DNA of 32,897 bases, from contig JANNVS010000197.1 of the NCBI GenBank assembly GCA_031414515.1, positions 1-32,897 of the forward strand, in the 5' to 3' direction. The position numbers and the translations under genes are program-made. Source of the stretch: Sphingobacteriales bacterium. GTDB taxonomy: Bacteria; Bacteroidota; Bacteroidia; Chitinophagales; JADIYW01. The notes beneath the pieces were generated by a model. It ran no database searches. It was not told where the DNA came from and saw nothing but the letters and a program-made list of their open reading frames with translations. Shown here one piece after another: positions 1 through 32,897 of this stretch; within the stretch, counting starts at the first letter, position 1, and the number at the start of each line of letters is the position of its first letter.

Positions 1-1268
1 TGGAGGAAAAGCTTAATTTAATGAAACCAGATATTGTTGGGATAACCAGTTTTACTGTATCATTAATAGATGTTGTATTATCAGCTCAAGTGGTTAGAAA
101 GGTAGTTCCTGATGCACATATTTGTTTAGGTGGACATCATCCAACGGCATTTTCCTATGAAGCTACACAATTATCTCAGTTTGACAGTATTATTGTTGGA
201 GAAGGTGAATATGCTTTTGCAGAACTCATAGATAAAATTGCCCACAATATTGACTTTACGGATATATTAGGTGTTTATACAAAAGAATCTATTTCGCGAT
301 TTGTTGATACAGGTTTTAAGGATAGGCGATTCTTGGCACATATGAATGTTCCACCAGCTTATGTTGAAGAAGTAGATGATATTCCTGTGCCAGACAGAAG
401 TTATATTCAACACATTAATTATAGTAGTATAGTAGGATTAACAGGAAAACTGGCTACTATAATTACGACAAGAGGTTGTCCATATAAATGTACTTTTTGT
501 GATGTTCCGTATAAAAAATACCGTGAACGTGACATAGATTTAGTGATGGATGAAATCGAGGATTGTATTAAACTTGGATATAAAGAATTTCACTTTTACG
601 ACGATTTATTTAATATTACGGCACAAAAAATAATTGATTTTTGCGATGCCTTGGAACGTAGGAATATAGATATTGTTTGGGATTTCAGAGGAAGAGTAAA
701 TGGTGTAACCAAAGAATCACTTGAAAAAGCAAAGAAAGTAGGATTGCGAATGATTTCTTTTGGTGTAGAAACAGGTTCTGATATTGGCATGAAAACATTG
801 AAAAAAGGAACAAATATTGCACAGGTAGAAAGGGTATTTGCCTGGTGTTCGGAATTAGGTATAAAAACCATTGCCAATTATATGATTGGTTTGCCACACG
901 AAAAATCTGTTCAAGATTTAAGAGATAATGTTGATTTTCTGATTCGCTTGAATCCAAATTATGCCCAATTTAATATATTGAGTTTATACCCACACACGCA
1001 AGTACATAAAGATGCAATGAAACTAGGAATAGCAGAAGAAGGAAAATGGGAAAAATTTTCATTAGATCCGTTGCATTATAATTTCAGAGTGGAACATTGG
1101 ACAGAATTTATTCCTGAAAAGAAATTAATAGAATTACAAAGAGAATCCTATCGCAGATTTTACTTCAGACCCAAATATATTTTTAACAGTCTTTTAAAAA
1201 CGACTACTATTCACGAGTTTAAATCCAAGGTAAAAGGTGTTATGAGTCTAATGAATATAGATATCTAA
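1..1268 (+). CDS. Cobalamin (B12)-binding radical SAM protein, 5'-truncated by the window edge
   Basis: TRGCPYKCTFC CxxxCxxC motif; B12-domain motifs PDIVG, GGHH, GEGE; FYDD and GVETG. The frame is open upstream of the ATG at 21 (EEKLNL-M) and the usual N-terminal part of the B12 domain is missing, so the true start is probably outside the window. Confidence 0.9.
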   Translation, partial: EEKLNLMKPDIVGITSFTVSLIDVVLSAQVVRKVVPDAHICLGGHHPTAFSYEATQLSQFDSIIVGEGEYAFAELIDKIAHNIDFTDILGVYTKESISRFVDTGFKDRRFLAHMNVPPAYVEEVDDIPVPDRSYIQHINYSSIVGLTGKLATIITTRGCPYKCTFCDVPYKKYRERDIDLVMDEIEDCIKLGYKEFHFYDDLFNITAQKIIDFCDALERRNIDIVWDFRGRVNGVTKESLEKAKKVGLRMISFGVETGSDIGMKTLKKGTNIAQVERVFAWCSELGIKTIANYMIGLPHEKSVQDLRDNVDFLIRLNPNYAQFNILSLYPHTQVHKDAMKLGIAEEGKWEKFSLDPLHYNFRVEHWTEFIPEKKLIELQRESYRRFYFRPKYIFNSLLKTTTIHEFKSKVKGVMSLMNIDI

Positions 1269-1396
1269 GCATTACTCAATTTGCGTTTTTAGAAAACCAA
1301 AATAGCACAAACATCAACTCTTATTAAACTCTAAATTAATATAGTACCTTATTTAATAATTCATTCTGGTGATTGTAATTTTTTAAAAGATAAAAC

Positions 1397-1404
1397 TATC
1401 TTTG
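1397..1404 (+). promoter_or_regulatory. Bacteroidota-type -7 promoter element (TATCTTTG)
   Basis: Exact TAnnTTTG match 22 bp upstream of the ATG at 1427. Confidence 0.55.
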
Positions 1405-1426
1405 TTAAACGTTCATAAATGAGTCA

Positions 1427-2443
1427 ATGAGTAATAATATCAGTGTTAGCATTATAGGATTTGGATATTGGGGTCCGAATTATGGCAGGATAATTCATTA
1501 TCATAAGAATGCTGATTTACGTATGATATGTGATGTAGATAAAACTCGTTTAAATGCAGCTAAAGAGTTATATCCTTCCGTACAATGTACTGATGATGTC
1601 GAAAGCGTTTTTAGTGATGCATCTACAGATGTTATAATTATTGCAACACCAGTAAATACACATGCAGACTTGGTCAAAATAGCATTGAAAAACAATAAAC
1701 ATGTTTTATGTGAAAAACCAATAGCCGCTACATTATCTGAGATACATGAAATAGAACTTATTTTAAAGAATACAGATAAGAAGTTGATGTGCGCTCACAT
1801 TTATGAGTTTAATCCAATCATCAGATATATAAAAAATTATTTAAAGAATGATGATATTGGCCAGCTACTTTATATGAGTGCTTTCAGAAATGGTTTAGGT
1901 CCAATCCGGAAAGATATAAATGTAATTTATGATTTAGCTACTCATGACATATCTATCATTTTATTTCTAATGGAGAAAATGCCGATAGCAGTATCAGCAG
2001 TCGGTACAAGTTGCTTTAAAAATGGAATTGAAGATGTTGCATTTATACATTTGGAGTTTGCCGAAAAATTATTTGTATCCATTCAGGTTTCCTGGCTGGA
2101 TCCTATTAAAGAAAGAAAATTAAGAATTGTAGGCTCTAAAAAGATGCTACTTTTTAATGATCTTTCCGTTGATGAAAAATTAAAAATCTATAAAACAGGC
2201 GAAAGTTATTTAAATTTTAATGGTGATTTCGGAAGTTTCCAATCTACCATAAAAGATGGTGACATTCTGATTCCTAATATTTTTTTTGAAGAACCATTAG
2301 TTGTTCAATTTAATCACTTCATGGATTGTATTGCAAATAATCAACAACCAGATACAGATTTAACGAGTGCAAAAAGAGTAGTAAAAATATTGGAAGCATT
2401 GAATCATTCTTTAAAAAATAACGGTGAAAGAATTAGACTTTAG
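1427..2443 (+). CDS. Gfo/Idh/MocA family NAD(P)-dependent oxidoreductase (probably nucleotide-sugar)
   Basis: GFGYWG Rossmann motif, ATP...H, HVLCEKP, DLATHD, SWLDPIKER. Confidence 0.9.
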   Translation: MSNNISVSIIGFGYWGPNYGRIIHYHKNADLRMICDVDKTRLNAAKELYPSVQCTDDVESVFSDASTDVIIIATPVNTHADLVKIALKNNKHVLCEKPIAATLSEIHEIELILKNTDKKLMCAHIYEFNPIIRYIKNYLKNDDIGQLLYMSAFRNGLGPIRKDINVIYDLATHDISIILFLMEKMPIAVSAVGTSCFKNGIEDVAFIHLEFAEKLFVSIQVSWLDPIKERKLRIVGSKKMLLFNDLSVDEKLKIYKTGESYLNFNGDFGSFQSTIKDGDILIPNIFFEEPLVVQFNHFMDCIANNQQPDTDLTSAKRVVKILEALNHSLKNNGERIRL

Positions 2444-3152
2444 TCATATCTCACTTTCATTAATTATTCCTGTTTATAATGAGGAAAAATCTGTACAGGT
2501 AGCTATAGATTCAAACCTGAAAGCATTAAAAAAATACTTAACGAACTATGAACTTATCATAGTAAATGATGGCTCAGTTGATAACAGCCAATCACTTATT
2601 AATGATTATATTAAAGGAAAAGAGAATTTCATTACTATTGAAAAACAAAAAAATCAAGGAATTGGAAGTGCAATAAGAGTAGGAATAGAAAAAGCAAAAT
2701 ATGATTATGTGTTACCAGTTCCAGTTGATTGTCCATTAGATGATAATACATTATATCTTTTTTTATGCAATTTAGAAAATGTTGATGTATTAGTAGGATA
2801 CAGACCCAAAAGAGTTGGATATTCATTGAGAATGAAACTAAACTCTTACGTATTTCACAAATTAATATCTTGGCTTTTTAAAATAAACTTAAAAGATTAT
2901 AACTGGATTCATTTGTATAAGCGAAAAATATTTTTTGAAGAAGGTATTAAAATTTCGTCAAATGGCATCATGATGTTGGCAGAAGTATTAATCAAATCAT
3001 CCAGAAAAAACAGGTCTCTTAAAGAGATTGAAATTGTACAACGAGAACGACTCACTGGAACAGCTACAGCATCTAAACTTATAACAGTAATAAAAACAAT
3101 CAAAGAAATTGTCTTATTGTATAAAGAGATAAGAAATAAAAGCTTTATATAA
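2424..3152 (+). CDS. GT2 glycosyltransferase, DPM-synthase/polyprenol-P-sugar synthase-like
   Basis: IIPVYNEE, IVNDGSVD, NQGIGSAIRVG, GYR, RxxG; GTG start overlaps the upstream gene by 20 bp. Confidence 0.85.
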   Translation: MKELDFSHISLSLIIPVYNEEKSVQVAIDSNLKALKKYLTNYELIIVNDGSVDNSQSLINDYIKGKENFITIEKQKNQGIGSAIRVGIEKAKYDYVLPVPVDCPLDDNTLYLFLCNLENVDVLVGYRPKRVGYSLRMKLNSYVFHKLISWLFKINLKDYNWIHLYKRKIFFEEGIKISSNGIMMLAEVLIKSSRKNRSLKEIEIVQRERLTGTATASKLITVIKTIKEIVLLYKEIRNKSFI

Positions 3153-3173
3153 AATGAATAACAAAGATTATAT

Positions 3174-4829
3174 ATGGATGGATTAAAAATGATTGTACGA
3201 TTTTATTCTTTGCCTTTCATTATTATACAACTGATAAATTTATTATTTTTCATTTTATTTAATAGCTATTTCGAAGAGTATGAAACCTATATTTCCTCAG
3301 CCATAGAAGGAATTTATACAAAACCAGCTGTCTTGGGTTGGGATTCTGATACTCATTTTTTATTAATTTATATTTATAGCTGGCTCGCAAAAATGACCAA
3401 CGATTATAATATCTATGGTATCATTTTATTTTTTAATAATTGGTGCAGTCTTACTTTTTTAGGATGCATTCTCTATAGAATTCTAAGAATAAATATTTCT
3501 AATAGTAAGTTGTTTATTTTTATTCTTTTGTATAGCATAGTTTGTGTAGATAATATGTTGAACTTAAATAGTGTGCGCATTGCTTTTGTTTATACAGCCG
3601 CTGTCTTAGGTTATATGGAATCCATGCGTTTTGAGAATAAATTCATAAGCAAGAAAAAGTGGTTTTGTTTATCAATGATTGTTATTTATGCAGGATTAAT
3701 TAGGTTTGAATCTGTCCTGATGTTTTCGATAATTTATGTTATTATTCTACTTATACATAAACGATTTTATAAGTTAGCACTAGTTCCAGTCTTTATTAGT
3801 GGAAGCATTTATTTAGGATATAATTTAACTGTAGCAAATTTTTCCAGTGAAGAAAAAAAAGTATTTATTTATAAAGAAAGAGAAATTTTTGATAGATATA
3901 ATATTGACTATAATAAGCTTTCTGCTCTACAAAAATTAGATGTAGATGCAATTATGAATTATTGTATAACAGATAAAGAACACTTTACATTAAGTTTTTA
4001 TGATTCCATCAGTAGAAATCATCCTAAAAATGGATATCTAAATGTGTTTAATGGATTTAATTATGATTCTCTAGGAAATACATGGATGATAACAAAAAAC
4101 AATTTTTATGCTGCACGATTCTTTTTTATTTTCTTCTGGATTTCAGGATTATTTATTTTATTTAAAAAACTTCCAAATAGAAAGCGATATTTCTTAATCT
4201 ATTTGTTTTTAGCTTTATTGCCTCTGCTCTTATGCTTTTATACAGTAGTGCCATTAAGATTCTTAATTCCTTTTCTTTCATTGTCCGGATGTCTGAATGT
4301 GTTTATATTTATTAAATACACTGAAAAAATTAAAACTATTTTATGGTTCTGTTTAATTATTCTGTCATTTATTTTTTCAGATATATATAAAGCTAAAAAA
4401 CAATATGAAGATAAATCAAAAAAGTATAATGATTTTTCAAACAAATTATTATTGCTCGATAAAAACCAGCATTCTTTAAATCCTATTGTTATAAATAGTA
4501 TTTTTCCTGTCAACTATTTTCCGGTAAAACCATTGGAGAAATTAACCAAACAACATGCTGTATTTTTAAATTCCTATCTTTTAAGTGCGGATGATTACCA
4601 GATTCAGACATGGAAAGAACTCTGTCATTGCAATACTTTTTCACTGAAAGAAAGAGTTGATTATATTGTAGCAAACCAGAATTTGTTTTTGATTGATGAT
4701 AAGGCTTTTGATTTTATGAAAGTATATTTTGAAAAAAAGTATCATCTTCATTTACAAAAAACTGTTCTAAAGGATTTTGATAGAGATTTAAAGGTCTGTA
4801 GATTAAGTTATGTTTCAGAAAATAAATAA
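3174..4829 (+). CDS. Polytopic membrane protein, paralog family A copy 1 (putative GT-C-fold glycosyltransferase)
   Basis: About 10-11 hydrophobic segments, acidic first loop (FEEYE), LIRFES and PLRFLIP motifs, soluble C-terminal domain with CHC; alignable with 4882..6543 and 13543..15177. Confidence 0.6.
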   Translation: MDGLKMIVRFYSLPFIIIQLINLLFFILFNSYFEEYETYISSAIEGIYTKPAVLGWDSDTHFLLIYIYSWLAKMTNDYNIYGIILFFNNWCSLTFLGCILYRILRINISNSKLFIFILLYSIVCVDNMLNLNSVRIAFVYTAAVLGYMESMRFENKFISKKKWFCLSMIVIYAGLIRFESVLMFSIIYVIILLIHKRFYKLALVPVFISGSIYLGYNLTVANFSSEEKKVFIYKEREIFDRYNIDYNKLSALQKLDVDAIMNYCITDKEHFTLSFYDSISRNHPKNGYLNVFNGFNYDSLGNTWMITKNNFYAARFFFIFFWISGLFILFKKLPNRKRYFLIYLFLALLPLLLCFYTVVPLRFLIPFLSLSGCLNVFIFIKYTEKIKTILWFCLIILSFIFSDIYKAKKQYEDKSKKYNDFSNKLLLLDKNQHSLNPIVINSIFPVNYFPVKPLEKLTKQHAVFLNSYLLSADDYQIQTWKELCHCNTFSLKERVDYIVANQNLFLIDDKAFDFMKVYFEKKYHLHLQKTVLKDFDRDLKVCRLSYVSENK

Positions 4830-4881: not shown

Positions 4882-6543
4882 ATGAATAGTATAAAGAAAA
4901 TATCGAATTTTTATCTTAAGCCATTAATTGTTATACAGCTATTAAATCTTGTGTTTTTCATTGTATTAGGTTCATATTTGGAAGAATGGGAAGGTTTTTT
5001 TTCTACTGCGATTGAAGGAATTTTTACTAAGCCTGCAACCCGAGGTTGGGACACAGATACTCATTTTTTATTACTTTATATTTATAGCTGGCTTGCTAAT
5101 TTTACCAGTGATTACAATGTTTATGGTTTTATTTTAATATTTAATAATTTATTTAGTCTTACTTTTTTAGGGTGTGTGATATTTAGAATTTTAAGAGTAA
5201 ATCTTTCAAATAGTAGTTTTCTTCTATTTATTGTAATATATAGTATAGTTAGTATTGATAATCTTGTTAATTTAAATAGCACTCGAAATGCTTTTATTTT
5301 AATTACTGCAATCTTGGGTTATATTGAATCCAGACGATATCAAAAATCGTCAATAAAAAAAACAGAATGGTGTTTTTTATCTTTTTTTATTATTTATGCG
5401 GGTCTTATCAGATTCGAATCAGTATTTCTGTTTTCAATAATATACATTACCCTACTTTTTATTCATAAAAAATTTTATAAGTTAGCCCTTATTCCTGTTT
5501 TTATCAGTGGTGGCATACTATTGTTATTTAATTTAACTTCTGCACAATTTTCAAGTGATGAAAAAAAAGTATTGATTTATAAAGAAAGAGAAATTTTCGA
5601 CAGGAATAATGTGGACTATGAGAGACTTTCAATTCTCCAAAAATTAGATGTGGATGCTATTACAGAATATTGTATAACAGATAAAGAACATTTCAACGTT
5701 GGTTTTTATGATTCAATTAGTAGAACTGATTCTGAAAATGGTGTATTTAGTTCTTTAAATGGGTTTACTTACGTCTCTTTTTTAATTACCTATATTACTT
5801 CACTTAAAGATATATATGCAGCTCGATATTTCTTTTATTTTTTTTGGATTTCGGGTTTATTTGTTTTGTTTATAAAGCATCCTGACAGAAAAAAAGCATA
5901 TAATATTCAGTTTCTATTTCTGCTAGTTTTTCCATTTCTCTTATGTTTATACACCACAATACCACTACGGTTTTTAATTCCATTTCTATCTGTTGCAGGC
6001 TGCCTTAATGTGTTCATTTTTTTAAAACATAGTAAAGAAACTAAAGCCATTTTGTGGTGCTCTTCACTTTTGTTTTTGTTGATTTTCTCGTATGAGTTTA
6101 ATCTTAAAAATGAATATGAAGAGAAGGTAAAAAAATATTCTGATTTTACAAATAAATTATTTTTACTAGATCAAAAATATCCAGCTAGTGAGCCCATTGT
6201 CATTAACAGCGTTTTTCCAATTAATTATTTTCCAGTAAAACCATTTGAAAAATTAACCAAACAACATGCCGTTTTTTTAAATTTCTATCTTTTCAGTGCA
6301 GATGATTACCAGATTCAAACATGGAAAGAACTCTGTCATTGTAATACTTTTTCGCTGAAAGAGAGAGTAGATTATGTAGTAGCACATCAGAATTTATTCC
6401 TGATAGATGATGATGCTTATGGTTTTATGGAAAATTATTTTTCTGTAAAGTATCATGTTCAATTAGAAAGAACGATAATAAAAGATTTTGATGAAAATTT
6501 AAGAGCATGTAGATTAAATTATGGTAGAAGTGTAAGTAATTAG
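4882..6543 (+). CDS. Polytopic membrane protein, paralog family A copy 2 (putative GT-C-fold)
   Basis: Tandem paralog of 3174..4829 (DTHFLL.YIYSWLA, YAGLIRFES, IYKEREIFDR, SADDYQIQTWKELCHCNTFSLKERVDY). Confidence 0.6.
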   Translation: MNSIKKISNFYLKPLIVIQLLNLVFFIVLGSYLEEWEGFFSTAIEGIFTKPATRGWDTDTHFLLLYIYSWLANFTSDYNVYGFILIFNNLFSLTFLGCVIFRILRVNLSNSSFLLFIVIYSIVSIDNLVNLNSTRNAFILITAILGYIESRRYQKSSIKKTEWCFLSFFIIYAGLIRFESVFLFSIIYITLLFIHKKFYKLALIPVFISGGILLLFNLTSAQFSSDEKKVLIYKEREIFDRNNVDYERLSILQKLDVDAITEYCITDKEHFNVGFYDSISRTDSENGVFSSLNGFTYVSFLITYITSLKDIYAARYFFYFFWISGLFVLFIKHPDRKKAYNIQFLFLLVFPFLLCLYTTIPLRFLIPFLSVAGCLNVFIFLKHSKETKAILWCSSLLFLLIFSYEFNLKNEYEEKVKKYSDFTNKLFLLDQKYPASEPIVINSVFPINYFPVKPFEKLTKQHAVFLNFYLFSADDYQIQTWKELCHCNTFSLKERVDYVVAHQNLFLIDDDAYGFMENYFSVKYHVQLERTIIKDFDENLRACRLNYGRSVSN

Positions 6544-6578: not shown

Positions 6579-8192
6579 TCAATTTTCTTCGGCATATATT
6601 TCTAATCTGTTGAATTCAATATTTAGATTTTTATCTTTGGGTACTTTTATTTGCATCTCAATTTTGCTTTTATCTACTTTCAGAAGTGAATCTATATAAG
6701 GTGTTTTGCTGTCTGTTTTATATAAAGCAATCTTAATATCTTTTAATGCATTTTCATATTTTCCTGCCTTCATATATAATCTGCTTCTGCAAAGGTAGTA
6801 TGGCCAAGGATTATTAAACCATATATCAGTACCTAATTTATCAGCTCTATCTAAACATGCCAATGCCTTTTTGGTTTCACCTCTTCCTTCATATTGTAGT
6901 GCCAGCTTGTACAGAAATTCTTCCGATGGATAATATTTAGCATTATTCTCAAACATTGTTATCTGGTTTCTGAAAGTTGGCAGATGTATTTTAAAAAGAA
7001 TAACAAGCAATAAGAAGTAACTAATTATGAAACTGATTTTTAAATTTCTGTTTTTTATTATTGCATCAATAACCAATCCTATGTATAAGATAATACCTAA
7101 CGGTGTGTGATAAAAGTAACGGTTGGAGACCAGCATCGGTAAGTCACCAAAAGGATAAAACATTAAATTCAGCATCGGTAAGATGGTTATTGTATAAAAA
7201 CCTAAAGCAAAAAACAGCGTATTTTGTTTTTTTATGTAATGATAAATCATTAAACCTATCAATATGCAGCTTGAAGCAGACATAATAAAATAATGCATAG
7301 GTAAAGGAAAATTCTCCGAAGGTGCAGGATAAAATACAACCAGTGGAAAAGGAAATAAACTTTTTATCCAGTAAAAAGAATAACTATATCCTGCAAGAAT
7401 GAGGTGTTCAAAATTCGAATAACTGAAATTCCGTATCAGGTAACTTTTGTCATTTGCTAATGTATTCAGATACCAGAAGAGCACTACAAAGGGTAGCATC
7501 GGCAATATATGTCCTGCAATAGTTTTAATCTTAATAGCATCTCTGTTCTCGTGAATATATAAAAGTATAAACACGCCAGGCATCGTAATAGCAGTTGTCT
7601 TTGCTAATGTTGATATTATCCAAAATAACAGAGAAAAAACATATAGCAGTATTTTATTTTTTTTTAATTCTGGACTTAAGTATAGTTTATAACATATCAG
7701 AGATGCCATAAAATAAGTATAAAACAAACCTTGTTTTCTACAGGAAGCCCAGGCAATAGATTCAATATTTATTGGTTGGATAAGAAAAATCATAGCGACT
7801 GCAAAAGCAATCCACCTTCTTTTTATCAATAGATTTATAAAAATAAACAGCAATAACCCGGACGTAATATGTAATAATAGATTATGCAACTTTATCATCA
7901 CCGGATTCATGCCAAACAGAATGTAATCAATAGAATAACTTACATAGGTAATAGGCATATAATGTAAGTCTGTTGTGTCATGAAAAAACAAATAAGTTAA
8001 CCCATTTTTCAATCCATATGCAGAAATCATCTGAATACTTTTATTGCTTATTACTAGCCAGTCATCATCTAATTCATAAAGCCAATCGTATAATAATGCA
8101 GGATAATACAATACAAAAGGTACAGATACCAAGAGCACAAGCATAATAAACAGTTGCTTTTTTTCTTGAATAGTATTATATTTTTGCATCAT
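6579..8192 (-). CDS. TMTC-like GT-C membrane glycosyltransferase with short C-terminal TPR region (family B copy 1)
   Basis: LDDDW loop, Y-x-P-I-T, HNLLLH, PINIESIAW, LAK, P.PL..FY, NRYFY, then TPR-like helices (KLALQY...AL; SRLYMKAGKYENALKD). Confidence 0.75.
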   Translation of the reverse strand: MMQKYNTIQEKKQLFIMLVLLVSVPFVLYYPALLYDWLYELDDDWLVISNKSIQMISAYGLKNGLTYLFFHDTTDLHYMPITYVSYSIDYILFGMNPVMIKLHNLLLHITSGLLLFIFINLLIKRRWIAFAVAMIFLIQPINIESIAWASCRKQGLFYTYFMASLICYKLYLSPELKKNKILLYVFSLLFWIISTLAKTTAITMPGVFILLYIHENRDAIKIKTIAGHILPMLPFVVLFWYLNTLANDKSYLIRNFSYSNFEHLILAGYSYSFYWIKSLFPFPLVVFYPAPSENFPLPMHYFIMSASSCILIGLMIYHYIKKQNTLFFALGFYTITILPMLNLMFYPFGDLPMLVSNRYFYHTPLGIILYIGLVIDAIIKNRNLKISFIISYFLLLVILFKIHLPTFRNQITMFENNAKYYPSEEFLYKLALQYEGRGETKKALACLDRADKLGTDIWFNNPWPYYLCRSRLYMKAGKYENALKDIKIALYKTDSKTPYIDSLLKVDKSKIEMQIKVPKDKNLNIEFNRLEIYAEEN

Positions 8193-19275: not shown

Positions 19276-19306
19276 AAGTACTATTTCACAGTAGTACTTT
19301 TCTTTA
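19276..19306 (+). terminator. Possible weak intrinsic terminator after the GT2 gene
   Basis: AAGTACTA-8 nt-TAGTACTT hairpin followed by a T-rich run at a convergent junction; the stem is AT-rich and overlaps the opposite gene's end. Confidence 0.25.
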
Positions 19307-25568: not shown

Positions 25569-26384
25569 ATGAATATCAATAATCATATCAATTCTTTAGA
25601 TAAAGAAGCATTTCTACAGGAGTTTACAGCAAACGGTTATGTAATAGTAGAAGGTATTTATTCCAATGAATTTTTGAGTGAATTAATGCCTGAATTAGAG
25701 ATGGCAAAAGTGAAAGAAGCAATTATCAATCTTGCAAATAATCAAAAGGCAGACGGCACTTTACTGGCTTGTCCGATTTATGGCGGTAAGTTTTTAGACG
25801 TGCTCGAAAATAAAAAATTCTTCGAGCCATTCAACTGGATATTAGGTGATACTTGTATAATTTGGGTGTATACTTCGTCATCGTTAGCACCAAATAGTAT
25901 TAATTCTACATCTCGTATTCATGTAGATAGGCCGCATTTTATTCCAAATTATAATGAAGGTGTTGGTAGTTTAATTTTGTTAGATGATTTTACAGAAGAA
26001 AATGGCGCTACTTGGTTTTTACCTGGTTCACATAATACAGCAGTAGAACCAGATGAAGATTATTTTTATAATAATGCCAAACGACTGATTGCACCAAAAG
26101 GTTCTGTTTTTTATTTTAATTTACGATTATGGCATGCTGGCGGAATGAATACGACAAATAAAAGTCGTAATGCATTAGGTATTGGAATGATTAGGCCATA
26201 TTACAAGCAAAGAATTGATTTACCTCGTGCTTTGGAACATATCGATACTTCTAATTTATCAAATATGACGAAACAAAAATTAGGTTTCTTTTCTCAACCA
26301 CCAATATCCTTAGAAGAGTTTTATGATAATGGCAAAGGAAAGATAAAGCATCAGCCTTCTGAATGGGAAAAACCAATGAAGTAA
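25569..26384 (+). CDS. Phytanoyl-CoA dioxygenase (PhyH) family Fe/2OG oxygenase
   Basis: NGYVIV, HVD, LDDFTEENGAT..LPGSH, APKGS, LWHAGG.N, R; starts 1 bp after the desaturase stop. Confidence 0.88.
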   Translation: MNINNHINSLDKEAFLQEFTANGYVIVEGIYSNEFLSELMPELEMAKVKEAIINLANNQKADGTLLACPIYGGKFLDVLENKKFFEPFNWILGDTCIIWVYTSSSLAPNSINSTSRIHVDRPHFIPNYNEGVGSLILLDDFTEENGATWFLPGSHNTAVEPDEDYFYNNAKRLIAPKGSVFYFNLRLWHAGGMNTTNKSRNALGIGMIRPYYKQRIDLPRALEHIDTSNLSNMTKQKLGFFSQPPISLEEFYDNGKGKIKHQPSEWEKPMK

Positions 26385-26385: not shown

Positions 26386-27735
26386 TCAGCGCGCCTGGTA
26401 GGCTTGTTTGTTTGATTTTTCTAAAATAGCATCATGATTATTTTCTGCTTTAGACATAATGGCTAAAAAATCATAGTGAGCATTCCATAACTCACTCACA
26501 CTTTTATAATCATGATATGGATAGTTATATTTCGCACATAAATTTTTCACAATAGGAATCATCTTTTGTAAATTTTCTACTGGTATGAATGGTATTAAAT
26601 GATGCTCTATTTGTACATTAAATCCACCAGTGTACCAATTCCAAAATTTGCTATCTGAACAGAAATTAGTAGTGTTATGACAGGCATAATAGGCAAATTT
26701 ATTCTTGTACTCATCAGGTATCTGCTGAATTACTTGTGGTACAAAATGATTGATTGCAGAACCTACATATATTCCATAAAACAATATACATTGATACACA
26801 AAATAAAGAGTGATATGCCATAGCAATCCATTGTTTGTCAATAGAGTTGGAATAACAATAAAATATACTATTGTCATAAATAGCGATAGGTTATGTTTTA
26901 GTGTTATTTTGCGATTATGATTAGTCCAGAAGTTAGATTTTATGCCACCAATGGTAGTGATAATATTGGCATAAAATGGATAAATATATTTGGCCAATTT
27001 ATGTTGATGTTTATGAAAATAATTTGGTGTGACATTTCCTGAATATCGAATGAATGATGCAAAAGCGGCTACTTCAAAATCATATTCAGGGTCACCAATT
27101 TTTATATGATGACTATTGTGTTCGTATCGCAATCCAGATTGTGTAATAAAAGGCCAAAAAACTGGCCATGTAATATCTAATAATATTTTTAGTAATTTAT
27201 TCTTTGGAAAATTTCTGTGTGTGGCTTCATGTCCAATCAACCCAAATAATGAAGTGCCGATAATGGCTTGTAATGCAACAAAGATTATAGAGATCCACCA
27301 GGCAATATTTCCATAGAGTGCCAGTACTGAAAGACCGAAAAATATAGTAAGATTTATTAATCGAAACCAGAAAAATTTATTTTGGAAAGCATTTGGTATT
27401 TTGTACAATTTTGCTTTGTAAGATTGATCGACTAATTCCATAAAAAATGGCTCATCAAAATCATTTATATTTATATGTTCTTCTAAAGGTAATATGCCAA
27501 TTTTTAGATTTTCTAGCCGTTTTATTACAGTTGGATTTTTGCCATGTTTTCCAATAAAATAACTAGTGGCATCTTCACCAGCTCTAGATAATAATATTTC
27601 ACTTCCGCCAGGATGCTGTTTGATAAAACCAGTGAAGTCGTAAACATTGTTTTGGATAATTAACCAACAATCATTTATTGAATTATGTTGAAGAATTTCA
27701 ACTCTGGAAATAATATTTGTATCAATGGTTGACAT
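26386..27735 (-). CDS. Cytochrome b5-fused front-end-type fatty acid desaturase
   Basis: N-terminal b5 domain (HN...DCWLII...VYD...HPGG...AGEDAT.YF...H); His boxes HEATH, HNSHH and QIEHH. Confidence 0.88.
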   Translation of the reverse strand: MSTIDTNIISRVEILQHNSINDCWLIIQNNVYDFTGFIKQHPGGSEILLSRAGEDATSYFIGKHGKNPTVIKRLENLKIGILPLEEHININDFDEPFFMELVDQSYKAKLYKIPNAFQNKFFWFRLINLTIFFGLSVLALYGNIAWWISIIFVALQAIIGTSLFGLIGHEATHRNFPKNKLLKILLDITWPVFWPFITQSGLRYEHNSHHIKIGDPEYDFEVAAFASFIRYSGNVTPNYFHKHQHKLAKYIYPFYANIITTIGGIKSNFWTNHNRKITLKHNLSLFMTIVYFIVIPTLLTNNGLLWHITLYFVYQCILFYGIYVGSAINHFVPQVIQQIPDEYKNKFAYYACHNTTNFCSDSKFWNWYTGGFNVQIEHHLIPFIPVENLQKMIPIVKNLCAKYNYPYHDYKSVSELWNAHYDFLAIMSKAENNHDAILEKSNKQAYQAR

Positions 27736-27806: not shown

Positions 27807-29096
27807 TTATTTATTCTTTAACCAAGCAATATAGCTATAAAAACCAAAAGGATAAGTGTAATTCGAAATTTCATTGCCTTTTAAATCATAAAGGTATACT
27901 TGTGGATATTTATATTTTTCAAAATAACTGACAGCTGCCTTAGCATCTGACTTACTCATCCTTTGCATAATACCTGCTATCGGAATATTAAAGCCAACAT
28001 TGACTAGAACAAAATCATCCAGTACACTAATACTACCCATTGCGATAGTATTAATATCATATACTTTCTCAAATACAACTTCTAAAGAATTATCGGCATC
28101 GTTAATTTTAAAGACTCTAGCTAGTGCTGGTCTGAATGGATTAATTGAATCACCAGCGGAACCATTTTCAAAATAGCTAAAATAACCTTTAAATGGACCT
28201 GATTCTATCCTATTTAGATGATGCGTATAATAAGGATTACTTAGATTTCCAATGCCATTTATTTTGGAGAATGAATGTCCATTATTGCCCCAATACCAGT
28301 CTATATTGTGTGTCTTTAAATCAATTTGTAAAAATCCTGAAAAAGCACAATTTATTAGCAACTTATTATTTTCTGTTTTTTGTATCCAATTCCAATGATA
28401 GATATCTAAAATCTTATTGTAAATTCCGTCAGATTCAAATAGTTCAGGAACTAACATGGAATCGGGTACAATAGTTGACGTAGAAAATAGAAATGATTTT
28501 TTGTTGGTGGTAGAATTCCACTCATAGAAATCAAAATCTATAATACTGGTATCTATTCCGAAAAGCATTTTTCTTCTGTCGTAGTCAGCTACTGAAAAAT
28601 AGTATAAACTATCACCTTCATTAATAATACAATGTCTGTCAAGATTGGCATCTATATCTTTTCCTATAGATAATTCTATTACGTTACTACTATTATATTT
28701 TTTAGAGATTATTTTAAAATTGTCCAGATACATATAGCCTTTACTATCATTGCTTTGTGGCTGCATCCAGATAGAAGTTAAAATTGATTTTTCAGATTTT
28801 TCAGAATTATTTTTTTTAACCAGCACTTCTTCACTTGTTTTTCCATAAATACTGTTTGTTAGAATATAAGATTTTTCATGTTCTTTACCTTTAGTGGAAT
28901 CAAAGAGACCAGGTGTTAAAAAATCAAAAAGATTGTAGAAATCATGACAAGGTAGAACTATCGAATACTTATTATCAAATAATTTTGCTTTTTTAGGGTT
29001 AGTAATTTTACTGGCAACTTTTATACTGGCTGGATTCTCACAGAATGATTTTTGAAATGTAAATAATGTAAGAAGAAGGAATATAAATTGTTGCAT
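27807..29096 (-). CDS. Secreted protein, arylsulfotransferase (ASST)-like beta-propeller
   Basis: Signal-peptide-like N-terminus; motif order D-x-H, Y-H-x-N, W-x-W-G, T-H-H, FENG, MGS resembles ASST-family motifs. Confidence 0.5.
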   Translation of the reverse strand: MQQFIFLLLTLFTFQKSFCENPASIKVASKITNPKKAKLFDNKYSIVLPCHDFYNLFDFLTPGLFDSTKGKEHEKSYILTNSIYGKTSEEVLVKKNNSEKSEKSILTSIWMQPQSNDSKGYMYLDNFKIISKKYNSSNVIELSIGKDIDANLDRHCIINEGDSLYYFSVADYDRRKMLFGIDTSIIDFDFYEWNSTTNKKSFLFSTSTIVPDSMLVPELFESDGIYNKILDIYHWNWIQKTENNKLLINCAFSGFLQIDLKTHNIDWYWGNNGHSFSKINGIGNLSNPYYTHHLNRIESGPFKGYFSYFENGSAGDSINPFRPALARVFKINDADNSLEVVFEKVYDINTIAMGSISVLDDFVLVNVGFNIPIAGIMQRMSKSDAKAAVSYFEKYKYPQVYLYDLKGNEISNYTYPFGFYSYIAWLKNK

Positions 29097-29306: not shown

Positions 29307-30989
29307 TTAGTCTATTTTATACAGATGAAATTGTAATAATCCTCTTGGAGTGTTCGCATTAATTTCTGGTGATTGATTGGTTTTAGAAAAGTGAATATCT
29401 ATTTCGTAAATTGACTGAATATAATTTTCCAACATTTGCATTCTTTCTTCACAACCTAAGAAGTATACGTTTTCTTTGTTTTTTTCTATATATAAAACAT
29501 AGTCTTTAAAATGATTAGAGCCTGCAATTTTATTATTGAATTCCAAATGATTCTTCATCATAGACATATATCCATTGTCTAGGCTGAATAAATTTATTTT
29601 TTTAATATCAGCAGTTGACATTATTGCTTTTGTAAAAAATAGTTGTAGAGAATATAAATCTGGTACCAAGATTTTATCTGATTGGCGCAATTTCCAGTTT
29701 TCAATAAATGATGTTGCCTGTGTATGCAGACTTTTTCGATATCTTAATTTATAATAGCATTCCGATATAAAAAACAGTTCTGCTAATAAAAGCACAGCAA
29801 CAAATAATAGGTATGTTCTTTTGTTTGTTGGCTTTAAATCCGGTAGATTATGTAATAGATAAAATAGTGTTATTAGTAGTATTGGATTTAGAACCCTGTC
29901 TTCCATTTTTATATAAATCGTAATTGCAAAAATGTATATAAAGGCCAACAAGAGAATCAGTAATACTTTTTTTAATAATTTATATTCTTTTAACATAAAA
30001 AGCAGTACTATTAAAATAAAAGTAACTGACAATAAAATGATATAATTAGCTCTATTGTTATATGCCAGATCCGACAGATTGCTAATGGCGTTAATTATAT
30101 TATGTTCATACTTAAACGTTTTGACAAACGATTTAAAATCAACTCTGTCGTGAGGTTTTATATTTAATTGTTCAAATATAGCAGTGTTTATTAAACTATC
30201 CGTATCGCCAAAGAATGCTTGATGTAATGAATAGTATTTAATATAATTTTGTTTTGAAAGTACTAGGTGCAGGCTGTCTTTCTGCTTAAAATCAAGTATG
30301 CTATATTTATATGTTCTAAATACTTCATAACGCTTATCATCATCATTATAAGGTTGCTTATTTAAATAACTAATGAGAGCTGCTGATAGAATTACAATTA
30401 ACCAAATGTATTTCCTTTTTTTTAGGTTTAAAATAAATAACGATGCTTTTTGAATAATACAAATGCCTGATGAAAATATAAAGACAAACCAGAACGTTTC
30501 GGTTCGTAATAAAACTCCGAGCAGAATCAATAATAAAGCGATTTTAATCTTTCCTTTATCATTGAGTAAAAAATAACAACCTAAAAAATTGCAATAGATG
30601 GCTGTCTTTGTGAACTGTATAAATATAAAATCATGAAGTAGCAAAAGTAAGACACCCGATAGAAGAATGAGTTTAAAAAACTTATTCTCTTTAAAACTCA
30701 TTCTTTCTATAAATAATAGAATCATTAAATAGATGCAATAGGAATTAATGGCAACAATTATGACTCCATAGATATTTATATTTACAAAAACTGTTTGCAG
30801 TTTTTGTATTAGTTTTGAAATAATAAATAAGCATTCATAATTATTAAATATACTACCAGGTTGCGTTTGAAATAAACCAGAAAATATTGCAGAAAAAATA
30901 TAATCTGAGAATTCATCTAAGTAAATACCAATAAAGTAAGCAATGGCTACTAAAGTAATTATTAGATATCTTTTTTTTTGAACACTCAA
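29307..30989 (-). CDS. Polytopic membrane protein, distant member of family A (putative GT-C-fold)
   Basis: Same size and topology; LDEFSD loop, NIYG, FTKTA, LLRTE, DRVLNP correspond to family A NVYG, STRNA, LIRFE, LRFLIP. Confidence 0.5.
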   Translation of the reverse strand: MSVQKKRYLIITLVAIAYFIGIYLDEFSDYIFSAIFSGLFQTQPGSIFNNYECLFIISKLIQKLQTVFVNINIYGVIIVAINSYCIYLMILLFIERMSFKENKFFKLILLSGVLLLLLHDFIFIQFTKTAIYCNFLGCYFLLNDKGKIKIALLLILLGVLLRTETFWFVFIFSSGICIIQKASLFILNLKKRKYIWLIVILSAALISYLNKQPYNDDDKRYEVFRTYKYSILDFKQKDSLHLVLSKQNYIKYYSLHQAFFGDTDSLINTAIFEQLNIKPHDRVDFKSFVKTFKYEHNIINAISNLSDLAYNNRANYIILLSVTFILIVLLFMLKEYKLLKKVLLILLLAFIYIFAITIYIKMEDRVLNPILLITLFYLLHNLPDLKPTNKRTYLLFVAVLLLAELFFISECYYKLRYRKSLHTQATSFIENWKLRQSDKILVPDLYSLQLFFTKAIMSTADIKKINLFSLDNGYMSMMKNHLEFNNKIAGSNHFKDYVLYIEKNKENVYFLGCEERMQMLENYIQSIYEIDIHFSKTNQSPEINANTPRGLLQFHLYKID

Positions 30990-30998
30990 GTGGATACT

Positions 30999-32627
30999 TT
31001 AAATATTAGTTATTTTTTTTAGATACAAATTAATGCTTTTTTTGTCATCAACTATATGAATAAAACTATCATTATCTTTTAAAAATTTAATTAGGTTATT
31101 ATAAATTAGACTTTGAGTTGAAAATTCCTGATTTTCTGTTAGAATGATTACATCGTAGTTTATGAAATTTAATTTTGGCTCTTTTTTATTATAAGTATAC
31201 ATGTTATTAATAGAAATATTTTCACAGGATGAATTTGGTATAAACTTATCAAATTCACCATCGTTTGATAATATTCTTAGATTTTTTATTTTCCGTTCCT
31301 CTTTATACTGATTAATAATATTAATACTATTTATTACTCTTCGGTCTATATAGCTTTTGTTTTTTTCAAAATATGTACTAGTTGTTGGATGCAGTATAAT
31401 AATACAACCGATAATGAAAATTAGGATAAATTCTGTTATCTTTTTGTATCTAAAATTTATTAGAAGGTGTATAATACTTATGTATATTATAGGTACAAAA
31501 AATAAAAAATATCTTGCTTCAAATATATACACTACAAATACTATAATTGTAGGTATTGTGCAAATCACAAGAAATAATATTACAGGATTCCTTAATAAAT
31601 ATTTTATTTTTAATTGTGAGATGTTTATAAGTAGTGTAATAATTATAATCCATGAAAACATATAGTTTATTATACTTTTGTCTTTATAGCCTACAAATAT
31701 CTGAGGAAGTAGTATGTCTGTAATTCTATATGAATTAATAATCACAGTATTGTAAATATTAAAAAGTGAATTCTTTGTAAATTCTATAGGGTTGCTAAAA
31801 AAGAATTCGGATATGCTTTTTGCATTTCCAAATATCTTTGTACTGTTGGTATATAAATCAATGTTTGGAAAAAGAGGCATCTCTTTCATTTGTAAATAAT
31901 TTCTCGTATAACTTTGTGCATAGGCTAAATAACTATGTTCTGTTGCAGTAATTGATAAGCCAAATACTTTTATTAGAATGAGTGAAGTCAGTATGATAAA
32001 AATAAAAAGAATTGTTTCCCTCTTTTCATTTCTTAATTTTAGTATATAATATATTGCGTATATAATAATTGAAATGATAAATAAAAGACAATATTCATTT
32101 CTGCAGTAGCTTAATATCAAAAATGAAATTGTAAACAATGAAATTGTAGAATATTGTTTCTTTTTAAAATAATAAATTAAACAGGCCATTAGGCAAATTA
32201 TACTTAATGTAAAATTATTTAACTTCATTGCCCACGAGAAGACAAAGTCATTTACAATATATTCTGTTGATACATTTGTATTTGAATATAAAAAGAGTAA
32301 TGCAAAAAATAAACTAAATACAATATTCCTGAAATAAGTGAATAATAATAAGTAAATGCAAATGGGTAATAGAATAATATTTATTCGTTGATTTAAATAA
32401 TAAAGAGATATGTCATTTGATTCAAAAATACGTAAGAATTTATACCAGAGCGGATATACGATTCTTGTTCCACCAGACATAATGTGTTTGCTTAATATAA
32501 GATAATCTGCTTCATCATTTAAATCCAATTCAATATAATTCTTTAATTCTGAAGTCAGATTATATCCTAAAAAGATCAAAATAATAATTCCAAAAATAAA
32601 GTATATCGTTTTTTTATGATTAATCAT
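30999..32627 (-). CDS. Polytopic membrane protein, putative GT-C (ArnT/PMT-like) glycosyltransferase
   Basis: DLNDEADY acidic loop after TM1, YP, RNE, EARYFLFFVP, C-terminal soluble domain. Confidence 0.55.
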   Translation of the reverse strand: MINHKKTIYFIFGIIILIFLGYNLTSELKNYIELDLNDEADYLILSKHIMSGGTRIVYPLWYKFLRIFESNDISLYYLNQRINIILLPICIYLLLFTYFRNIVFSLFFALLFLYSNTNVSTEYIVNDFVFSWAMKLNNFTLSIICLMACLIYYFKKKQYSTISLFTISFLILSYCRNEYCLLFIISIIIYAIYYILKLRNEKRETILFIFIILTSLILIKVFGLSITATEHSYLAYAQSYTRNYLQMKEMPLFPNIDLYTNSTKIFGNAKSISEFFFSNPIEFTKNSLFNIYNTVIINSYRITDILLPQIFVGYKDKSIINYMFSWIIIITLLINISQLKIKYLLRNPVILFLVICTIPTIIVFVVYIFEARYFLFFVPIIYISIIHLLINFRYKKITEFILIFIIGCIIILHPTTSTYFEKNKSYIDRRVINSINIINQYKEERKIKNLRILSNDGEFDKFIPNSSCENISINNMYTYNKKEPKLNFINYDVIILTENQEFSTQSLIYNNLIKFLKDNDSFIHIVDDKKSINLYLKKITNI

Positions 32628-32639
32628 TATTACTTGAAC

Positions 32640-32897
32640 TTATGCAATTAATTTATTAAACTCTTTCATCTTTATTTTACTTGTAGAAGGATCAAAGGTG
32701 TCAATCAATTCTCCATCCGCCACATAATTAATAAATCCATTTTTTATGGAAGAAGAGAAATTTGTTTTCTGAGCTATTTGTAGAAAATAATCTTTTGTTA
32801 CATGGTATTTATTTATTTTATTTGATTCTGTATCTAATATGTAATGTGTAATAGGTGTATCTTTTGGTTTCAGATTTAGTCCGATTGAAATTCGATG
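32640..32897 (-). CDS. 3' end of a gene running off the window; possibly a PhyH-family dioxygenase C-terminus
   Basis: 85-codon open frame not in the ORF track (HRISIGLNLKPKDTPITHY...NKLIA*), ending 12 bp before the next start; RIxIGxxxxPxxxPxxHY resembles PhyH-family C-terminal strands. Confidence 0.5.
   Translation of the reverse strand, partial: HRISIGLNLKPKDTPITHYILDTESNKINKYHVTKDYFLQIAQKTNFSSSIKNGFINYVADGELIDTFDPSTSKIKMKEFNKLIA

Follow-up and report, generated by a model that had tools for sequence, protein, structure and literature searches.

We analyzed a 32,897-base stretch of DNA from a Sphingobacteriales bacterium, hereafter called the window, which holds a dense assembly of genes for putative membrane glycosyltransferases, radical S-adenosylmethionine (SAM) enzymes and oxygenases. 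The window is the entire contig C197 of the source genome (G000; 3.04 Mb in 484 contigs), so there were no flanks to inspect. Open reading frames (ORFs) were called, 25 of them (g01 to g25) fill the contig, and their products were scanned against Pfam and NCBIfam. The GC content is 28.4%, the fourth lowest among the 224 contigs that reach 5 kb (31.6 ± 1.4%), and the nearest named homologues of its genes lie in metagenome-assembled genomes (MAGs) of Chitinophagales. A first-pass annotation of the same DNA had proposed a glycoconjugate-tailoring island that lacks a standard exporter or polymerase; in agreement with this, neither Pfam nor NCBIfam gave any match to the Wzx, Wzm/Wzt, Wzy, Wzz, Wza or ABC families among the window proteins. 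Two related loci recur below, namely a single 42-kb contig from a metagenome scan (the sister contig, loci L006 and L007) and a locus spanning 34 kb in G190, a genome from a different genus within the family of G000.

Eight membrane proteins of four types stand out in the window. memA1 (g04, 3174..4829, plus strand) belongs to a rare family that has no Pfam model and only 15 relatives in 5.8e9 proteins, and it is accompanied by the paralogues memA2 (g05, 4882..6543, plus; 63%) and memA3 (g11, 13543..15177, plus; 45%). memB1 (g06, 6579..8192, minus) combines a PMT-like GT-C membrane domain with C-terminal tetratricopeptide repeats (TPRs) in a TMTC-like architecture, and has the paralogues memB2 (g07, 8327..9901, minus; 64%) and memB3 (g15, 19281..20855, minus; 62%). 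The remaining two are memC1 (g23, 29307..30989, minus), a distant member of the memA GT-C superfamily, and memC2 (g24, 30999..32627, minus), a rare GT-C-like membrane protein. The membrane parts of all eight lacked a Pfam or NCBIfam match; evidence on the fold comes from structural models of memA1 and memB1, extends to the memA and memB paralogues by kinship, and is replaced by profile comparison for memC1 and memC2.

The AlphaFold (AF2) model of memA1 has a pLDDT of 82.8. Foldseek ranks 1 to 26 for this model were all GT-C proteins, at E-values of only 2e-3 to 0.3, and a VIA-align search of 48,161 chains returned GT-C enzymes at all of the top 13 positions (Z 9.7–13.4, 340–442 residues aligned), including AftA (Z 13.4), Pmt4 (13.1) and ArnT (10.5) as well as Pmt1, AftB, ALG12, STT3, AglB, DPY19, AftD and PglB. 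For the memB1 model (pLDDT 89.1), the top 20 VIA-align matches were all GT-C (Z 10–19.7), with Pmt2 at 19.7, Pmt4 at 19.2 and ArnT at 17.7, and with AglB and ALG12 among them; residues 410–520 matched TPR proteins (Z 8–9). ArnT was the top Foldseek match of both models. Distant memB homologues carry PMT_2 or PMT, and some are named protein O-mannosyltransferase. A profile search of memA and memB against PDB chains gave chance matches or TPRs only and was discarded. memC1, which has 110 representative relatives, aligned over its whole length with the memA family profile in hhalign (probability 99.8, E 8.5e-28, 514 columns). memC2 has 8 relatives and aligned through 199 N-terminal columns with the memB/PMT_2 profile (probability 94, E 1.4e-7), its DLNDEA lying on ELDDD of memB; its atlas neighbours are labelled "RgtA/B/C/D-like" and PMT_2, which we treat as a lead only. 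Since memC2 showed no similarity to memC1 by BLASTP and reached a probability of only 1 against the memA profile, its link to GT-C runs solely through the memB/PMT_2 profile.

Acidic residues directly after the first transmembrane helix (TM1) are kept in all four types. D43 is invariant and D42 nearly invariant in memB, as are E32 and E29, respectively, in memA; memC2 has an invariant D38, and memC1 carries YLDEFSDY after TM1 and has a conserved E..D in the consensus of its family. The topology read from the models would place these residues of all eight proteins in the first extracytoplasmic loop, and the catalytic Asp or Glu of GT-C enzymes sits just after the first membrane helix. The earlier count of eight GT-C-like membrane proteins therefore stood, fold evidence speaking for six and profile evidence for two, and all eight, as judged from models and alignments, belong to the GT-C superfamily. 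None of them matched PMT_2 (PF13231) or PMT (PF02366) at E ≤ 0.01, and memA1, memC1 and memC2 failed to do so even at E ≤ 10; memB itself had no PMT, PMT_2 or DUF1736-type match in Pfam, and PMT_2 was found in 2 of the 32 members of an extended memB alignment. The sequence relation of the window enzymes to PMT and PMT_2 is accordingly placed at superfamily level. The four genes of the memA/memC1 type also encode a C-terminal globular domain. Across G000, profile searches assigned 6 ORFs to the memA/memC1 type, 5 to memC2 and 10 to memB, to which the Pfam PMT_2 search added 6 clear and 2 weak ones. The total of about 27 GT-C-like ORFs, an unusually large complement for 3.04 Mb, is spread over contigs C197, C466, C237, C400, C256, C37, C453, C203, C144, C361, C278, C111, C289, C112, C213, C201, C31 and C332.

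The two family 2 glycosyltransferases (GT2s) named by the first-pass annotation are present, and both match Glycos_transf_2. g03 (GT2a; 2424..3152, plus) encodes a soluble-type enzyme of 242 aa (6.5e-23) with partial NCBIfam matches, far below cut-offs, to ArnC (5e-16), PgfS (2e-11) and AglJ (1e-7). g14 (GT2b; 18384..19268, plus; 2.3e-30) is of the GtrB/ArnC/PgfS type and ends in two hydrophobic helices; it aligned over its full length, also below cut-off, with ArnC (2.6e-24; 85.8 bits, cut-off 529) and PgfS (2.2e-21; 76.4 bits, cut-off 500), and its orthologues are 72% (L006/L007) and 42% (G190) identical. Both are candidate polyprenyl-phosphate sugar synthases, their likeness to GtrB/ArnC-type synthases being one of family level only. 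The eight GT-C enzymes probably use lipid-linked sugars, the sole basis being their co-location with these two genes; the pairing of lipid-loading GT2s with GT-Cs, as first proposed, is consistent with the gene content.

Two sugar enzymes, likewise identified correctly at the outset, accompany the glycosyltransferases. g02 (1427..2443, plus), which overlaps g03 by 20 nt, encodes a Gfo/Idh/MocA sugar oxidoreductase (Pfam GFO_IDH_MocA 1.8e-23) with a match of 5.8e-45, below cut-off, to an archaeal UDP-GlcNAc 3-dehydrogenase model. The g02–g03 type of pair is also adjacent or overlapping in G190 and in two other related loci (L025 and L028), and in L028 a memC1-type GT-C lies upstream of it. g12 (15550..16731, plus) encodes a DegT/WecE-like pyridoxal phosphate-dependent sugar aminotransferase (DegT_DnrJ_EryC1 3.8e-59) that approached the dTDP-4-amino-4,6-dideoxygalactose transaminase model (5e-105), its 351 bits falling short of the 375 required.

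All three B12 radical SAM enzymes reported earlier were recovered: g01 (3..1268, plus; its 5′ end is cut by the contig end), g10 (11872..13464, plus) and g13 (16728..18239, minus). Each matches B12-binding (3.5e-9 to 1.3e-19; 3.5e-9 for g01) and Radical_SAM (5e-20 to 4e-16; 5e-20 for g01) in Pfam and carries a CxxxCxxC motif, in the forms CPYKCTFC, CPYRCTFC and CPYTCAYC, respectively; by domain content they are class B (cobalamin-binding) radical SAM enzymes. g01 represents a strongly conserved orthogroup, with orthologues of 79% identity in L006, 72% in G190 (tblastn using the truncated copy of the window; 68% when the query was full-length) and 47–87% with a full-length query. The solved structures nearest to a full-length g01 orthologue are AprD4 (1.4e-18, over the radical SAM core only) and then TokK. 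AprD4 is an enzyme of apramycin biosynthesis that is not known to use cobalamin, and TokK is a methylase. g10 has an 89% identical orthologue in L007, and its nearest solved relatives are TokK and AprD4 (4e-11); g13 has paralogue-level matches only in the sister contig.

The kinship of g01 with AprD4, its nearest solved relative, raises the alternative that the genes direct the synthesis of a diffusible or membrane-bound glycosylated natural product, either aminoglycoside-like or a glycolipid, and not of a surface polymer. The toolkit does parallel the aminoglycoside pathways: tailoring there employs an oxidoreductase, an aminotransferase and a B12 radical SAM enzyme of the GenD2/GenS2/GenD1 type, the PhyH-type KanJ and the carbamoyltransferase TobZ, and a carbamoyltransferase, a CN-hydrolase, a sulfotransferase and a WelO5-like halogenase occur in the companion or related loci described below. 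However, extracytoplasmic GT-Cs with lipid-linked donors are atypical of small-molecule pathways, the window and the related loci examined contain no cyclitol synthase, polyketide synthase or nonribosomal peptide synthetase, and no resistance or efflux gene is evident. We therefore give little credence to a natural-product pathway.

The tailoring genes include three iron- and 2-oxoglutarate-dependent (Fe/2OG) oxygenases and two desaturases. The first-pass annotation had counted three to four Fe/2OG oxygenases from three families; one in each of three families was recovered, and the fourth was not found. g08 (9952..10692, plus; Asp_Arg_Hydrox 2e-32), whose orthologue in L007 is 73% identical, belongs to the Asp/Asn beta-hydroxylase (AspH) family and is OlsC/LpxO-like. 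g09 (10727..11704, minus; Pfam 8.4e-25) is a Cupin_8/JmjC oxygenase with a 72% identical orthologue in L007 and a 39% identical paralogue on contig C380 of G000. g20 (25569..26384, plus; Pfam 1.7e-19) is a PhyH-family oxygenase with orthologues of 78% (L006) and 45% (G190) identity. Both desaturases of the earlier list match FA_desaturase in Pfam. g19 (24665..25567, plus; 2.3e-37) encodes a membrane di-iron hydroxylase or desaturase with three His boxes, a match of 9e-35 to GntB that falls below cut-off, and a 65% identical orthologue in the sister contig. g21 (26386..27735, minus) encodes a desaturase (FA_desaturase 9e-26) fused to an N-terminal cytochrome b5 (Cyt-b5 1e-18) and has a 78% identical sister-contig orthologue; its b5 domain contains HPGG and its third His box is QIEHH. 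We take HPGG together with a QxxHH box to be marks of eukaryote-type front-end or sphingolipid desaturases, uncommon in bacteria.

These enzymes bring in a second alternative, in which the island remodels lipid A, the lipopolysaccharide (LPS) core or membrane lipids, cationic or acidic sugars being added by GT2 and GT-C enzymes in the manner of Arn, Rgt or Lgm while the hydroxylases, desaturases and radical SAM enzymes act on acyl chains. The nearest models of g08 are OlsC (1.4e-34) and LpxO (1.1e-24), two FA_desaturase-family enzymes are present, one with cytochrome b5, HPGG and QxxHH, and the best NCBIfam match of the radical SAM enzymes is HpnJ, a lipid-biosynthesis radical SAM model being matched as well. 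In addition, the DegT protein, ArnC-like GT2 and GT-C parallel the Arn pathway, ArnT heads the Foldseek lists of both membrane models, and the RgtA/B/C/D-like labels of the atlas neighbours point the same way. Nevertheless, the Arn, LpxO, OlsC and HpnJ matches are all far below cut-offs, and the number of GT-Cs (eight here, about 27 in the genome) far exceeds what lipid A decoration needs. The PhyH and AspH paralogues arrayed on companion contigs point to many distinct sites on the substrate, and contig C31 carries a separate Arn-like trio. We consider lipid remodelling unlikely as an account of the island, while taking it seriously.

A third alternative holds that the island modifies surface or periplasmic proteins, with TMTC-like GT-Cs performing O-glycosylation, JmjC and AspH enzymes hydroxylating, and B12 radical SAM enzymes methylating peptides, as in ribosomally synthesized and post-translationally modified peptides (RiPPs). 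The PMT-like membrane domain of memB (Pmt2 Z 19.7, Pmt4 19.2) together with its TPRs has the architecture of protein O-mannosyltransferases, the solved structures nearest to g09 are JMJD5 (1e-14) and FIH (1e-8), and the radical SAM enzymes also match RiPP C-methyltransferase models (ApyD 4.5e-37). Against this, sugar-nucleotide genes accompany the radical SAM genes (Gfo/Idh/MocA and DegT here; relatives also have FdtA and a gene of the GDP-mannose dehydratase family), protease, leader-recognition and export genes are lacking, and the oxygenases and radical SAM enzymes have no readable signal peptides, whereas GT-C acceptors are periplasmic. Nor did the intergenic regions contain a precursor-peptide-like ORF: in those longer than 60 nt, a scan for ORFs of at least 25 aa from an ATG-encoded Met returned only three, all unconvincing, and the RiPP precursor idea was rejected. 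Protein modification thus appears improbable to us as the function of the whole island.

The remaining genes were assigned less firmly. The GNAT, SGNH and ASST calls of the first-pass annotation correspond to weak matches only. g18 (23483..24535, minus) encodes a conserved, weakly GNAT-like protein of 350 aa (Acetyltransf_1 E 0.014) with orthologues of 70% (L006) and 38% (G190) identity; the sister-contig protein L007:1541-2545, which is GNAT-positive, is 25% identical to it. g16 (21100..22149, plus) encodes a 349-aa protein with an N-terminal hydrophobic segment, for which SGNH-like is a lead only; a block-I-like stretch aligned pairwise with an SGNH protein of L025 (E 0.005), and the protein has no Pfam or NCBIfam match and no orthologue in the sister contig. 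g22 (27807..29096, minus) encodes a secreted or lipoprotein-like, weakly ASST-like protein (Arylsulfotran_2 3e-4, below cut-off) with a 57% identical sister-contig orthologue; it showed no pairwise similarity to a clearer ASST protein of L025, so the ASST call was not strengthened. Consequently, of the modifications proposed for the product, acylation is based on the weak GNAT and SGNH calls, and sulfation has as its basis in the window the sub-threshold ASST match, true sulfotransferases being confined to the sister contig and a different contig of G000. g17 (22218..23465, minus), which the first-pass list did not include, encodes a CPA2 cation/proton antiporter (Na_H_Exchanger 7e-65); neither the sister contig nor the G190 locus has an orthologue of it, and it is probably a passenger outside the pathway. 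g25 (32640..32897, minus) is an 85-aa C-terminal fragment, cut by the contig end, with no family match.

The packing of the genes is operon-like in several places. g01 to g05 (radical SAM, Gfo/Idh/MocA, GT2a, memA1 and memA2) share one strand, with a gap of 158 nt between g01 and g02, the 20-nt overlap of g02 and g03, and gaps of 21 and 52 nt thereafter. g10, g11 and g12 (radical SAM, memA3 and DegT) are co-directional, g19 and g20 are spaced by one base, and g25, g24, g23, g22 and g21 form a minus-strand run with gaps of 9 to 210 nt. A promoter and terminator scan of the window was uninformative, the sites being fewer than in shuffled sequences.

The clearest counterpart of the window is the sister contig, in which 15 of the 25 genes have orthologues (g01, g04, g05, g06 or g07, g08–g12, g14 and g18–g22). 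Identities not yet given are 71% for g12 and, by contrast, only 24–29% for the distant GT2 matches of g03; g02, g13, g16, g17, g23, g24 and g25 have no orthologue there. Its GT-C genes comprise five memA copies and one memB copy, and it contains in addition further PhyH proteins, another B12 radical SAM enzyme, a methyltransferase, a sulfotransferase, a GNAT protein, GT2s, a UbiA-family prenyl/phosphoribosyl transferase, an FAD_binding_4 oxidoreductase and a short-chain dehydrogenase/reductase (SDR). The UbiA-family, FAD_binding_4 and SDR genes (L006:8684-9676; L007:4112-5512 and 5513-6364) adjoin memA genes. The interval between g14 and g18 (19281-23465) holds memB3, g16 and g17 in the window and a single GT2 gene in the sister contig, a difference that points to local insertion or rearrangement. 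A first scan of genome contigs with the memA alignment had found no relative. In the G190 locus, the g01 orthologue is joined by four more B12-type radical SAM enzymes, one radical SAM enzyme without a B12-binding match, AspH and PhyH oxygenases, the g18 orthologue, three GT2s, two Gfo/Idh/MocA proteins, one DegT protein, a CN-hydrolase, a carbamoyltransferase, a LysE-family gene between two radical SAM genes, and four GT-C genes (three of memA/memC1 type and one memB). Thus, the families of the window occur together both in a syntenic metagenome contig and in another genus of the same family; the lack of co-occurrence that the first-pass annotation had named as a refutation was not observed.

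The association extends beyond the family. Full-length g01 orthologues of 47–87% identity were found at 15 loci (L022–L036) in four phyla, their hosts being Chitinophagales, Hydrogenedentota, Oligoflexia and Bdellovibrionia (Bdellovibrionota), and Elusimicrobiota (Endomicrobiaceae and one other lineage); 14 further matches at 22–26% identity are not orthologues. Clear GT-C genes lie in six of the ten loci that reach 15 kb (L024, L025, L028, L029, L031 and L034), including four PMT_2 genes in L029 and, in L034, a PMT_2 protein with TMEM260-like and TPR regions; L024 duplicates the G190 locus. Further radical SAM genes accompany g01 in nine of the ten long loci and DegT genes in four. Because the loci are mutually related, these counts are descriptive and do not amount to a statistical test; even so, the core of B12 radical SAM, GT-C and DegT genes is found together in other phyla too. 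In the Elusimicrobiota locus L031, a GDP-mannose-4,6-dehydratase-family gene, the g01 orthologue, a second B12 radical SAM gene, a 142-aa ORF and a DegT gene follow one another, an order that ties the radical SAM enzymes to nucleotide-sugar metabolism. L028, from a Chitinophagaceae MAG, holds six PhyH genes, a WelO5-like (halogenase-type) Fe/2OG gene, a SPASM radical SAM gene and a multihaem cytochrome gene at 11600-20197, and has, within 10 kb of its g01 orthologue, an ABC ATPase that matches Wzt_C weakly; no Wzt lay within that distance in the other three relatives checked. L025 contains a 132-aa Polysacc_synt_C fragment. The g01-type enzymes of Chitinophagales are 47–59% identical to those of Hydrogenedentota, Oligoflexia, Bdellovibrionia and Elusimicrobiota, far above the conservation of their neighbours; this suggests that the substrate is tightly constrained or that horizontal transfer was recent.

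Among 45 genomes of the family, memA was found in 3, memB of the window type in 4 (a longer form of about 690 aa being commoner) and g01 in 5, and memA occurred in 2 of the 401 genomes of a phylum sample. The island is accessory and was probably acquired horizontally. One might still suppose that the window holds unrelated neighbours without a common pathway, given the many strand switches, the absence of the CPA2 antiporter and g16 from the syntenic contig, and the variation of the tailoring complement among relatives. Yet 15 of the 25 genes are syntenic with that contig at 45–89% protein identity, these families form clusters in a second genus and in further phyla as well, and co-directional genes overlap or are tightly spaced. 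The genes have not come together by chance, and a collection of unrelated genes is disfavoured as very improbable.

Related genes are also found elsewhere in G000. Short, low-GC companion contigs carry two AspH genes, one SPASM radical SAM gene and three PhyH genes (C67); an AspH gene, two SPASM radical SAM genes, a glycosyltransferase gene, an SGNH/AlgX-like gene, a carbamoyltransferase fragment and a UbiA-like match (C319); CN-hydrolase, FdtA, GT2, PhyH and JmjC genes with two B12 radical SAM and two to three AspH genes (C380); a methyltransferase, a SPASM radical SAM and a further radical SAM gene (C427); and a memA-like gene with an AspH gene (C466). The GC content of the island-type contigs C197, C67, C319 and C466 is 25.8–28.8%, compared with 31.7% for the genome, C319 having the lowest value of all 224 contigs of at least 5 kb. 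As the same families recur on these contigs, the window is probably part of a larger island in fragments, or else one member of a set of related islands. In four radical SAM proteins of about 470–520 aa on C67, C319 and C427 (L015:1255-2676; L016:584-2071 and 2080-3651; L018:1729-3225), SPASM (residues 55–130) lies N-terminal to the radical SAM core (from about residue 150), the reverse of the usual order. On C31, at 22366-26259, an ArnC-like GT2, a DegT protein and a PMT_2 GT-C are encoded in a compact trio, which may be an ordinary Arn-like module for lipid A or LPS modification.

Contig C237 harbours a conventional Wzm/Wzt polysaccharide locus. Its genes are of the ABC2_membrane, ABC_tran with Wzt_C, GT4, GT2, GT8 and DegT families (three of the last), together with methyltransferase genes and an asparagine-synthase-like gene (L051:11826-13944; L052:7892-9469), and a memC1-type GT-C is embedded within it. 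The first-pass annotation had suggested a dedicated pathway; given the C237 locus with its memC1-type GT-C, the island may decorate a conventionally exported polysaccharide and not stand alone. PMC11127046 describes the same arrangement, a GT-C inside an O-polysaccharide locus that adds side chains after polymerization, and this match makes a surface polysaccharide our first choice of acceptor.

Overall, after weighing these data, we somewhat favour the view that the accessory low-GC island is an expanded extracytoplasmic glycosylation system of the three-component type with rich radical and oxidative tailoring, and we propose a putative mechanism in which the substrates, the order of steps, the acceptor and the choice between methylation and deoxygenation by the radical SAM enzymes are points that we infer. 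In the cytoplasm, the Gfo/Idh/MocA oxidoreductase and the WecE-like aminotransferase would make an amino-deoxy sugar, and the B12 radical SAM enzymes would perform C-H chemistry, either C-methylation or deoxygenation, on the sugar or on its lipid-linked form. The two GtrB/ArnC-type GT2s (g03 and g14) would load sugars onto polyprenyl phosphate, and a flippase would move the lipid-linked sugar across the membrane. The eight GT-C paralogues (four memA/memC1, three TMTC-like with TPRs, and memC2) would then transfer the sugars to periplasmic acceptors, the likeliest being a surface polysaccharide or LPS made elsewhere, for example by the Wzm/Wzt locus on C237, with proteins as possible acceptors of the TPR-bearing enzymes. 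Membrane-associated Fe/2OG oxygenases and di-iron desaturase-family enzymes may oxidize the glycan, the carrier or an associated lipid.

Several observations weigh against this glycosylation system. Neither the window nor the sister contig nor the G190 locus showed a flippase of the GtrA, SMR/ArnEF or MATE type; the sole GtrA-family (GtrA_DPMS_TM) ORF of G000 is on C87, and this gene and the LysE-family gene of G190 are candidates for the role. No NCBIfam equivalog cut-off is reached by either GT2 or by the aminotransferase, GT2a is without a membrane anchor, and all matches to named equivalogs (ArnB, ArnC, PgfS, WecE, OlsC, LpxO and HpnJ) fall below their cut-offs. g08 is nearest to lipid hydroxylases, g09 has protein hydroxylases (JMJD5 and FIH) as its nearest solved relatives, and g21 looks lipid-directed; given such relatives, part of the island may target lipids or proteins, and the g18–g22 block may act on lipid. 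The many changes of strand mean that the island is not one operon. Among the long g01 loci, profile searches gave no GT-C gene in L022, L032 and L036, nor did Pfam in the two that it covered (L022 and L036), and a marginal one in L027 (2.3e-4); in one genome of the genus, the g01 orthologue occurs without memA.

A bolder extension of the proposed system is that the island, together with its companion contigs, makes an exporter-independent surface glycoconjugate of a kind undescribed outside Actinobacteria, in which exotic sugars are carried on polyprenyl monophosphate and the product is assembled stepwise in the periplasm by arrays of new GT-C families, much as in mycobacterial arabinan. Such sugars would be C-alkylated, deoxygenated, hydroxylated and perhaps carbamoylated or sulfated at the cytoplasmic face by B12 radical SAM and Fe/2OG enzymes. 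We hold this extension to be rather doubtful; if it were true, the g01-type enzymes would be a new class of sugar-modifying radical enzymes for lipid-linked glycosylation.

GT-Cs that use lipid-linked donors shape the antigenic and phage-receptor diversity of bacterial surfaces, and few of their families have been characterized. The island supplies at least two GT-C families without a Pfam model, one of them with 15 relatives among 5.8 billion proteins. If its radical SAM enzymes act on sugars destined for periplasmic transfer, the radical C-H chemistry of antibiotic pathways would extend to envelope glycans, and the g01 orthogroup and the memA family would be handles for finding such glycans in uncultured lineages. 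Should our reading be wrong, the island would still be a compact, conserved set of tailoring enzymes. A full-text literature search, covering sources other than subscription journals and supplements, returned no description of a locus of such composition, the papers that it brought up being those on three-component systems and on TMTC enzymes only.

The closest known parallels are the three-component systems of the GtrA/GtrB/GtrC type and the pentofuranose systems of Citrobacter youngae with GT136 enzymes (PMC11127046). They share with the island a cytoplasmic polyprenyl-phosphate sugar synthase, which is putative in our case, and a GT-C with an extra extracytoplasmic domain that transfers the sugar onto an exported glycan; the GT-C may lie inside an ABC-transporter-type O-polysaccharide locus, as on C237 (PMC11127046). 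The island differs in having eight GT-Cs and two GT2s where those systems have one of each, in the lack of a nearby flippase gene, in GT-C families without a Pfam model, and in being packed with enzymes absent from those systems, of the B12 radical SAM, Fe/2OG and di-iron kinds.

The Arn (4-amino-4-deoxy-L-arabinose, L-Ara4N), Rgt (galacturonic acid, GalA) and Lgm/Flm systems follow the same logic of an ArnB-like DegT protein, an ArnC-like GT2 and a GT-C, and Rgt employs four GT-C paralogues. However, the island reached only 133 bits against the ArnB model (cut-off 631) and the 85.8 bits already given against ArnC, no ArnA, ArnD, ArnE or ArnF was found in the window, and both the far larger number of GT-Cs and the radical SAM and oxygenase content set the island apart from Arn, Rgt and Lgm. 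The mycobacterial arabinan pathway (UbiA/DprE1/DprE2; AftA-D and Emb) resembles the proposed system in its serial GT-C paralogues acting on polyprenyl-monophosphate donors, and AftA was the top VIA-align match of memA1, tied with PMT, ALG and STT3. In contrast, the window has no arabinan-type genes, the UbiA, FAD_binding_4 and SDR trio being present only in the sister contig. A UbiA-like match (33%) does occur in G000 on C319, beside island-type genes. A decaprenyl-phosphoarabinose-like pathway for G000 was considered and rejected, since neither G000 (best FAD_binding_4 match 24%, on C41) nor the G190 locus has a DprE1-like orthologue.

Among eukaryotic enzymes, TMTC1-4 and PMT resemble memB in the PMT-like GT-C domain (Z 19–20 to Pmt2 and Pmt4), the TPRs and the acidic pair after TM1, whereas memB has a much shorter TPR region of about three repeats, no PMT, PMT_2 or DUF1736-type match, and a bacterial context. 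The aminoglycoside enzymes AprD4, GenK/GenD1, GenD2/GenS2 and KanJ, which act on amino sugars, share with the island the B12 radical SAM, Gfo/Idh/MocA-type, DegT-type and PhyH families. The AprD4 match, however, is only 1.4e-18 over the radical SAM core, the island has no cyclitol pathway, and its glycosyltransferases are GT2 and GT-C, not GT-B. Taken together, the scale of eight GT-Cs, the GT-C families without a Pfam model and the coupling to cross-phylum B12 radical SAM enzymes and to Fe/2OG and di-iron oxygenases are undescribed in the literature searched: the logic of a GT2 lipid-sugar synthase working with a GT-C is known, and the composition of the island is new.

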